This document shows, piece after piece, positions 2,693 to 2,710 of a stretch of 64,000 nucleotides of DNA. This stretch comes from Escherichia coli (GTDB lineage Bacteria > Pseudomonadota > Gammaproteobacteria > Enterobacterales > Enterobacteriaceae). Each line of letters opens with the position of its first letter. Position 1 is the stretch's first letter. The translations under genes were made by a program, and so were the position numbers. Below the pieces are notes generated by a model. It was not told the origin of the DNA, made no database searches, and was given only the letters and a program-made list of their open reading frames with translations. The stretch is taken from NCBI RefSeq assembly GCF_003790525.1, contig NZ_CP033635.1. One strand, given 5' to 3'.

Positions 2693-2710
2693 GGGGGAAG
2701 GCATTCCCCC
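2693..2710 (+). terminator. GC-rich stem-loop (GGGGGAA / TTCCCCC, 4-nt loop) between ycjV and ompG; no clean U-tract
   Basis: Perfect 7-bp inverted repeat directly after ycjV stop; could be partial terminator or RNA processing/stability element. Confidence 0.3.

Follow-up and report, generated by a model that had tools for sequence, protein, structure and literature searches.

The ycjV-ompG locus

The window, namely the whole stretch of 64,000 nucleotides of Escherichia coli DNA analysed here (RefSeq assembly GCF_003790525.1, contig NZ_CP033635.1), contains the distal genes of the ycj operon together with a short inverted repeat between the last two of them. The features of this region are listed below, each with its coordinates and strand and, where stated, the evidence on which it rests.

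1605..2687, + strand: ycjV, a MalK/UgpC-type ABC transporter ATPase of 360 aa (ORF list, NCBIfam, RefSeq), with its TAA stop at 2685-2687
2693-2699, + strand: 5' arm of the hairpin, GGGGGAA (sequence)
2700-2703, + strand: hairpin loop, GGCA (sequence)
2704-2710, + strand: 3' arm of the hairpin, TTCCCCC (sequence)
2693..2710, + strand: RNA stem-loop of 7 Watson-Crick pairs, 5 of them G-C (sequence, fold, orthologues, haplotypes)
2711..2720, + strand: U-poor tail AGGAUAAUAC, where the U-tract of a would-be terminator would lie (sequence)
2721..2726, + strand: Shine-Dalgarno (SD) sequence of ompG, AAGGAA, 5 nt 5' of the ATG and 10 nt 3' of the hairpin (sequence)
2732..3637, + strand: ompG, encoding a monomeric porin of 301 aa, at the distal end of the ycjMNOPQRSTUV-ompG unit (ORF list, annotation)
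3652..3681, no strand assigned: REP-type palindrome GCCGGATGCGGCGCGAGCGCCAAATCCGGC (sequence; weak naRNA4/REP-like Rfam match at 3636-3682)

The record of strain SMS-3-5, which is 100% identical to the window, annotates the two ORFs as an ABC transporter ATP-binding protein and the monomeric porin OmpG, and NCBIfam groups the ORF at 1605-2687 with the UgpC/MalK-type ATPases. The neighbouring ORFs are assigned by NCBIfam to the C-terminal part of a kojibiose phosphorylase, a beta-phosphoglucomutase and a LacI-family repressor, which are ycjT, ycjU and ycjW respectively. In K-12 MG1655 the gene order is ycjM...ycjU, the frameshifted pseudogene ycjV'/ymjB, ompG and the convergent ycjW, and the ycjV-ompG intergenic sequence is identical to that of the window. 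The names ycjV and ompG, which a previous sequence-only reading had given to the two genes, are therefore correct according to both the SMS-3-5 and the K-12 annotation. In addition, ycjV is intact here (SMS-3-5), with 360 aa, while in K-12 it is frameshifted into ycjV' and ymjB (K-12 locus 12822-13903). Despite this frameshift, the K-12 ompG is derepressed about 40-fold in a ycjW deletion, showing that the frameshift is without strong polarity.

From ycjU to ompG, no sigma-70-like promoter was predicted on the + strand. As the distal gene of the YcjW-controlled unit, ompG is without a promoter of its own and is reached only via transcription through the hairpin, which thus bears on how this silent porin gene is wired to the ycj sugar-utilisation operon; the practical consequence for E. 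coli biology is small. A different wiring is also on record, since the cog-192 deletion, reportedly described by Fajardo et al. in 1998, is said to fuse ompG to the psp promoter. Both the operon structure and its control by YcjW are described in the literature, and the ChIP peaks of YcjW are located upstream of ycjM and between ycjT and ycjU, with none at the hairpin (PMC6599011).

Downstream of ompG, the REP occupies most of the 50-nt convergent gap between ompG (stop 3635-3637) and ycjW (stop 3688), and its weak Rfam naRNA4 match is found on both strands. The corresponding gap is longer in K-12, with 110 nt. The operon seems to end at this REP at 3652-3681 rather than at a canonical terminator, and the REP is likely the 3' boundary of the operon transcript.

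A stable stem-loop in the intergenic region

The gap between ycjV and ompG extends from 2688 to 2731 (44 nt), with the stem starting 5 nt past the ycjV stop and ending 21 nt ahead of the ompG ATG. The sequence-only reading had described a perfect 7-bp GC-rich hairpin with a 4-nt loop at 2693-2710 in this 44-bp gap, and both the sequence and RNAfold bear this out. In a 29-nt context the hairpin is both the MFE and the centroid structure, with -13.6 kcal/mol, a stability that none of 200 shuffles matched; the stem-loop alone has -12.1 kcal/mol, and the fold of a 91-nt region is likewise dominated by it. We also searched all 64 kb, with 30 dinucleotide shuffles as control, for perfect stems (7 bp or longer, dG <= -12) and obtained 14 matches at 9 distinct sites against a shuffle mean of 3.3. 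On this basis, the chance expectation for such a hairpin in any given 44-nt gap is about 0.002. Other strong perfect hairpins of the window are located at 8980-9014, 38927-38949, 50794-50823 and 57915-57944, and the one at 8980-9014 is a 16-bp perfect palindrome, AATATGCCTGATGGTGCAACACCATCAGGCATATT.

A GC-rich stem of 7 bp with a loop of 4 nt lies within the range of intrinsic-terminator stems (5-14 bp, loop 3-8 nt), and a stable stem-loop between cistrons of one transcript has at the same time the form of an intercistronic mRNA stabiliser. On the + strand, the 5' flank of the stem is A-rich, and the 8 nt following it, AGGAUAAU, contain 2 U, so that the absence of a U-tract noticed earlier holds for this strand. 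What had gone unmentioned is that the T-rich side in Escherichia belongs to the opposite strand.

Several known types of element were considered and rejected. The hairpin is not a REP or dispersed repeat: a 38-nt query has a median of 1 place per genome (4,995 of 5,426 complete E. coli genomes), and no Rfam/naRNA4-type match is present at 2693-2710, unlike at the true REP at 3652-3681. More generally, an Rfam scan of positions 1-8000 with E <= 10 assigns no family to the hairpin. A leader-type attenuator or riboswitch was also discarded, there being neither an Rfam family nor an alternative fold (-3.8 kcal/mol without the 5' arm, z = +0.66). Finally, a CsrA-type pair of GGA motifs (AGGA at 2711-2714 plus the SD), considered on sequence grounds, was dropped, as the G2713A change removes the first of the two motifs in 1,200 genomes.

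The hairpin in other enteric genera

OmpG homologues were collected, 19 of them were aligned, and the alignment was used to fetch 61 loci from species-representative genomes. In all loci having enough upstream sequence, the gene 5' of ompG ends with the YcjV C-terminus (...HFFDAETE.AI.), which shows that the synteny is conserved. The ycjV-ompG gap ranges from 44 to 83 nt, apart from four exceptions having longer gaps or a non-YcjV C-terminus from the ORF finder. On the whole, in 58 of 60 loci, from about 20 enterobacterial genera, the 85 nt ahead of ompG hold a hairpin whose stability exceeds that of 95% or more of their dinucleotide shuffles, and across the loci it starts 3-27 nt past the ycjV stop. 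The genera differ in the number of T in the 8 nt after the stem, as follows.

6-8 T: Enterobacter, Lelliottia, Leclercia, Huaxiibacter, Siccibacter, Budvicia
4-6 T: Buttiauxella, Trabulsiella, Superficieibacter
3-4 T: Citrobacter amalonaticus/sedlakii, Salmonella arizonae/diarizonae
1-3 T: Citrobacter freundii group, Atlantibacter, Escherichia

Judged by stem and T-tract, the hairpins of the 6-8 T group are canonical intrinsic terminators, for example that of E. cloacae, GCCGGAAAT-GAAA-GTTTCCGGT followed by TTTTTTG. Among the genera of this group, Budvicia and Siccibacter are the most distant from Escherichia in the whole set by OmpG identity, and in taxonomy they branch outside the Escherichia-Citrobacter-Salmonella group. 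Because these most distant members carry it, a hairpin with a U-tract would most simply be the ancestral state.

The distance from the stem to the ompG ATG never exceeds 46 nt in any genus, being about 33 nt in the Enterobacter group and 29-46 nt in genera other than Escherichia, where the U-tract lies in between. This leaves no room for a promoter and a leader, and ompG has to be reached by read-through everywhere. Escherichia sequences have a spacer between hairpin and ATG that is shorter by about 10-25 nt, and the distance from the ycjV stop to the stem is 5 nt in E. coli compared with 9-12 nt in the Enterobacter group. The SD of ompG is kept as AAGGAA/AAGGA in nearly all genera. A single orthologous site thus provides a natural series that begins with a canonical terminator, continues with degenerate U-tracts and ends with a bare hairpin; it could serve for studies of the decay or repurposing of operon-internal terminators and of the tuning of read-through by a nearby stop codon.

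Two minor observations were made on these loci. In three loci of the Citrobacter freundii group, at about 2939-2975, the main 3' arm is overlapped by another possible hairpin, CCCCAA-nnn-TTGGGG with CATTTTTG after it, and a CCUUG stretch can pair with the ompG SD, CAAGG; as an attenuator-like structure this second hairpin was rejected, since it folds no better than shuffles. In addition, the records named 'Chryseobacterium sp. 18061', 'Citrobacter sp.' MAG HRGM_Genome_0066 and 'Pseudocitrobacter vendiensis' carry enterobacterial ycjV-ompG loci, probably through mislabelling or contamination. The OmpG proteins of HRGM_Genome_0066 and P. vendiensis are 99-100% identical to that of E. coli, and their intergenic sequences are that of the window or differ from it only by the common G2713A.

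Covariation and the acting strand

Beyond what had been read from the window, the comparison shows that the hairpin is conserved with covariation across Enterobacteriaceae. The stems are genus-specific in sequence and all paired, for example GGGGGAA/TTCCCCC, GCCGGAAAT/ATTTCCGGT, GCCGGGAA/TTCCCGGC, CGGAGCC/GGCTCCG and GCAAAGGCAGG/CTTGCCTTTGC. In an ungapped, loop-centred alignment of 14 orthologues, 96% of the cells are paired and both sides have changed in 7 of 9 pairs; none of 500 shuffles reached these covariation values, and sliding the partner by 1-3 columns leaves 25-61% paired. Among 29 distinct hairpins with a 4-nt loop, all Escherichia variants included, the six pairs nearest the loop are formed in 100% of cases, each with 2-5 different pair types, a figure that is partly true by construction, the hairpins having been chosen as the best per gap, and for which the shuffle stability test (58 of 60 loci) serves as control. 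We relied on the loop-centred subset and on these counts, since the MAFFT hairpin alignments were out of structural register; the covariance-model alignment, mixing both strands and unrelated matches, was left out of the pair counts.

As to the strand, 50 distinct hairpins, taken with a finder allowing both, show 18 internal G-U pairs against 3 A-C oppositions, and the Enterobacter group, Siccibacter and Budvicia have their T6-8 tract on the + side. The excess of G-U over A-C and the side of the T-tracts both indicate that the functional molecule is the + strand RNA, namely the operon transcript. Comparative evidence of this kind strongly supports both the conservation of the hairpin through compensatory changes and its action on the + strand.

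Variation within Escherichia

Four 38-nt haplotypes of the intergenic sequence are found in E. coli, as listed here with their predicted folding energies.

Reference haplotype, 2,613 genomes: perfect stem, -12.1 kcal/mol on the + strand
G2713A haplotype, 1,200 genomes: change 3 nt past the stem, -12.1 kcal/mol on the + strand
C2707T haplotype, 895 genomes: one G-U pair, -9.1 kcal/mol on the + strand and -5.5 kcal/mol on the - strand
C2707T + C2710T haplotype, 124 genomes: two G-U pairs, -7.4 kcal/mol on the + strand and -2.4 kcal/mol on the - strand

Of 4,989 E. coli genomes, 4,832 (96.9%) carry one of these four, the other 157 (3.1%) being left out of the haplotype assignment, and each of the four haplotypes keeps seven pairs on the + strand. 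The stem changes among the four are exclusively C-to-T, giving G-U pairs, and no stem-breaking allele was found in 11 E. coli records read base by base. In E. whittamii all 14 stem bases are kept, while the loop has changed from GGCA to GTGA (2 of 4 bases), the downstream stretch has diverged at 4 of 21 bases and an indel of 6 nt lies in the 5' flank. A hypergeometric calculation made by hand gives p of about 0.03 that some 8 changes, with 30 non-stem positions available, would spare the 14 stem positions, a value which is only suggestive. In Escherichia sp. MOD1-EC7003 the outer pair is missing and 6 bp are left. The spacing from the hairpin to the SD (10 nt) and to the ATG (21 nt) is fixed in all Escherichia sequences. 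From these comparisons, purifying selection on the stem within Escherichia appears plausible.

A separate observation concerns E. coli FDAARGOS_943 (about 3001-3025), in which homology to the window ends at the last 1-2 bases of the 3' arm (window position about 2709), indicating a rearrangement breakpoint right at the hairpin. The break is flanked by IS1A and IS4-like ISEc60 transposase genes, and the ompG part is located elsewhere in the chromosome.

Termination or read-through

Intrinsic termination by E. coli RNA polymerase is strongly dependent on the U-tract. At the hairpin, the terminator scan makes no call on the + strand, and a covariance model built from the 14 canonical orthologues (9 bp plus T-tract) gives no match at 2693-2710 with E <= 10 in either orientation. 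The expression of the operon has been measured in K-12, where qRT-PCR of an MG1655 ycjW deletion gave mean fold changes of 44.8 for ycjM, 22.2 for ycjT, 45.5 for ycjU and 40.4 for ompG (Luhachack et al. 2019, PMC6599011); the same four genes also co-vary in the mstA deletion, mstA-sup and S258N strains (PMC6599011). Since ompG is co-induced with the ycj genes, its transcription from the YcjW-controlled operon promoters passes the hairpin, and it is strongly supported that the hairpin does not insulate ompG from the YcjW-controlled promoter. These values are fold changes for each gene, in which a constant partial termination (say 30-70%) would be invisible. The sequence-only reading had argued against a full terminator, and this view holds on the three grounds of the missing U-tract, the failure of the orthologue model to match, and the roughly 40-fold co-induction of ompG in K-12; the hairpin should consequently not be annotated as a terminator. 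As for mapped RNA ends, the supplement of Adams et al. 2021 contains no + strand 3' end near K-12 13819xx and the TERMITe supplement no match for the ycjV-ompG locus; as the operon is repressed under the conditions of both, these absences carry little weight.

The position of the stem just past a stop codon deserves attention as well. With the ycjV stop in its A site, a ribosome of the established footprint dimensions would cover about 2693-2697, which is most of the 5' arm. In a reporter study, the lambda tR2 terminator located 8-9 bp past a stop codon was almost fully repressed by ribosomes and reached full efficiency only beyond about 30 bp (Li et al., PMC4824070). One could accordingly imagine that the enteric ycjV-ompG hairpin, 5-12 nt past the ycjV stop, is a ribosome-gated intercistronic terminator: the terminating ribosome would block the folding of the hairpin, and transcription of ompG would require that ribosomes translate ycjV in step with RNA polymerase. 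Escherichia would then have hard-wired the read-through by deleting the U-tract and kept the stem for RNA stability, and E. whittamii would have gained the polarity of an antisense-strand terminator. We consider this gated reading improbable.

Proposed origin and function of the hairpin

The explanation that we prefer, with a probability of about one half, is that the hairpin is a terminator-derived stem-loop which is read through and now serves mainly as a barrier in mRNA stability or processing, perhaps with weak attenuation. Within this explanation, identity and origin are held with much higher confidence than the stability function. The hairpin is a + strand RNA element inside the polycistronic ycjM...ycjV-ompG mRNA, and the Escherichia version of the intercistronic hairpin found just past the ycjV stop throughout Enterobacteriaceae. 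Elsewhere, in most genera, it is a canonical terminator with a U6-8 tract that RNA polymerase has to read through to reach ompG, while in the Escherichia lineage the U-tract is missing, the spacer is shorter and the stem starts 5 nt past the stop. With termination largely lost, the main role of the retained stem may be to block 3'-to-5' exonucleases: once an endonuclease has cut in the AU-rich spacer, the stem would shield the ycj message 5' of it, so that the ycj and ompG segments would decay at different rates. Pausing or termination at the hairpin would involve no more than a small, constant share of the polymerases. We propose the exonuclease-barrier role because the stem is kept without a U-tract in several lineages and U-less intercistronic hairpins act in this way elsewhere. 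The hairpin is a previously uncharacterised element of a known kind, and our literature search found no paper discussing it.

Two other readings share the origin from a terminator. It is conceivable, and can be held tentatively, that the hairpin is still a residual partial terminator or attenuator, with a constant fraction of polymerases stopping or pausing and ompG thereby set below the upstream genes. The orthologues at the same site are canonical terminators without a downstream promoter, which makes attenuation look ancestral and lends indirect support to the partial attenuator suggested by the sequence-only reading, and fold changes from qRT-PCR are compatible with a constant partial termination; however, only 2 U are present in the 8 nt after the stem, the canonical-orthologue model does not recognise the E. 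coli hairpin, and the stem is 5 nt past the stop, in the range where ribosomes repress even a strong terminator (PMC4824070). The other reading takes the hairpin for a neutral relic, a decaying remnant of the ancestral terminator without function in E. coli. Here we have to weigh the conservation of the stem against signs of its decay. The four major haplotypes all have 7 pairs, none of the 11 directly read E. coli records is disrupted, the E. whittamii stem is unchanged while its loop and flanks have diverged, and G-rich stems without a U-tract persist also in the Citrobacter freundii group and Atlantibacter; these results make a relic unlikely, although the U-tract is lost, two common substitutions in E. 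coli weaken the stem through G-U pairs, to a dG of -7.4 kcal/mol, the outer pair is gone in MOD1-EC7003, and ompG tracks the operon.

The remaining readings place the function of the hairpin at the 5' end of ompG, on the other strand or in the DNA itself. It is quite improbable that the hairpin stabilises the 5' end of ompG in the manner of ompA, with cleavage in the A-rich 5 nt ahead of the stem putting it at the very start of a protected, monocistronic ompG mRNA, or that it modulates ribosome access at the SD: the ATG spacing is 29-46 nt with an intervening U-tract in other genera, and no alternative pairing that sequesters the SD exists in E. coli (the fold without the 5' arm has -3.8 kcal/mol, z = +0.66). 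In favour of such a role are the A-rich 5' flank and the distance of 10 nt to the SD and 21 nt to the ATG, fixed across Escherichia. A minus-strand terminator, stopping antisense transcripts that enter ompG from the ycjW side, would agree with the T-rich side of the hairpin. On that strand, the bases after the stem are UGUAUUUA in E. coli and UUUUCUUUUG in E. whittamii (antisense T-rich side TGTATTTA and TTTTCTTTTG respectively), A makes up 5-7 of the 8 upstream bases in all Escherichia sequences, the scan calls a terminator on the - strand only, the covariance model matches E. whittamii in the - orientation only (E = 0.019), and a Rho-sensitive antisense RNA is reported inside ompG (K-12 1382709, - strand; Adams et al. 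2021 supplement). Nevertheless this reading is very unlikely, because the C-to-T alleles, present in about 20% of E. coli genomes, disrupt pairing on the - strand (-5.5 and -2.4 kcal/mol) and spare the + strand, no - strand gene ends at the hairpin, the antisense RNA is terminated by Rho about 800 nt earlier, the orthologues elsewhere have + strand polarity, and the A-richness comes partly from the adjoining TAA stop codon. A DNA-level palindrome, either a protein-binding site or a cruciform, is hardly credible in spite of the perfect 7+7 inverted repeat, as pairing and not sequence is conserved between genera, common alleles break the DNA symmetry while keeping G-U pairs in RNA, and the YcjW ChIP peaks are elsewhere (PMC6599011).

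Two observations on the minus strand are worth recording separately. An A-run 5' of the hairpin is present in E. whittamii (locus 2962-2979) and Escherichia sp. MOD1-EC7003 (locus 2963-2978), where the - strand reads as a canonical terminator, GGGGGAATCACTTCCCCC TTTTCTTTTG. The antisense RNA at K-12 1382709 (about window position 3495) belongs to a bicyclomycin-sensitive, that is Rho-dependent, region in the 3' part of ompG (Adams et al. 2021), and is presumably read-through from ycjW.

Comparison with known systems

An experimental parallel for the position of the hairpin is lambda tR2 near a stop codon (PMC4824070), in that the stop-to-stem distance of 5-12 nt is within the range suppressed by ribosomes; the tR2 case is an engineered reporter. 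Compared with the orthologous terminators of Enterobacter, Lelliottia, Leclercia, Siccibacter and Budvicia, the E. coli hairpin is alike in its position past the ycjV stop, in the GC-rich stem (6-10 bp) with a 4-nt loop, in the GGAA...TTCC core and in its action on the + strand. It differs from them in having 2 U instead of 6-8, in lying 5 nt instead of 9-12 nt from the stop, and in being missed by the model made from the canonical copies.

Intercistronic stem-loops that stabilise mRNA are well known, such as the malE-malF REP hairpins in E. coli and the hairpins of the puf operon in Rhodobacter. Like these, the ycjV-ompG hairpin is a stable stem without a U-tract between two cistrons of one transcript; unlike the REP hairpins it is single-copy, and the exonuclease-barrier role that it would share with them is the one proposed here. 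Some operons contain internal attenuators that reduce distal gene expression, for example the rplL-rpoB attenuator or T1 between rpsU and dnaG; these have kept a U-tract and show measurable termination. They resemble the orthologues in other genera, where co-transcribed genes are separated by a terminator-type hairpin and no promoter follows it, but they differ from the E. coli hairpin, which is without a U-tract and past which ompG is induced equally with the upstream genes.
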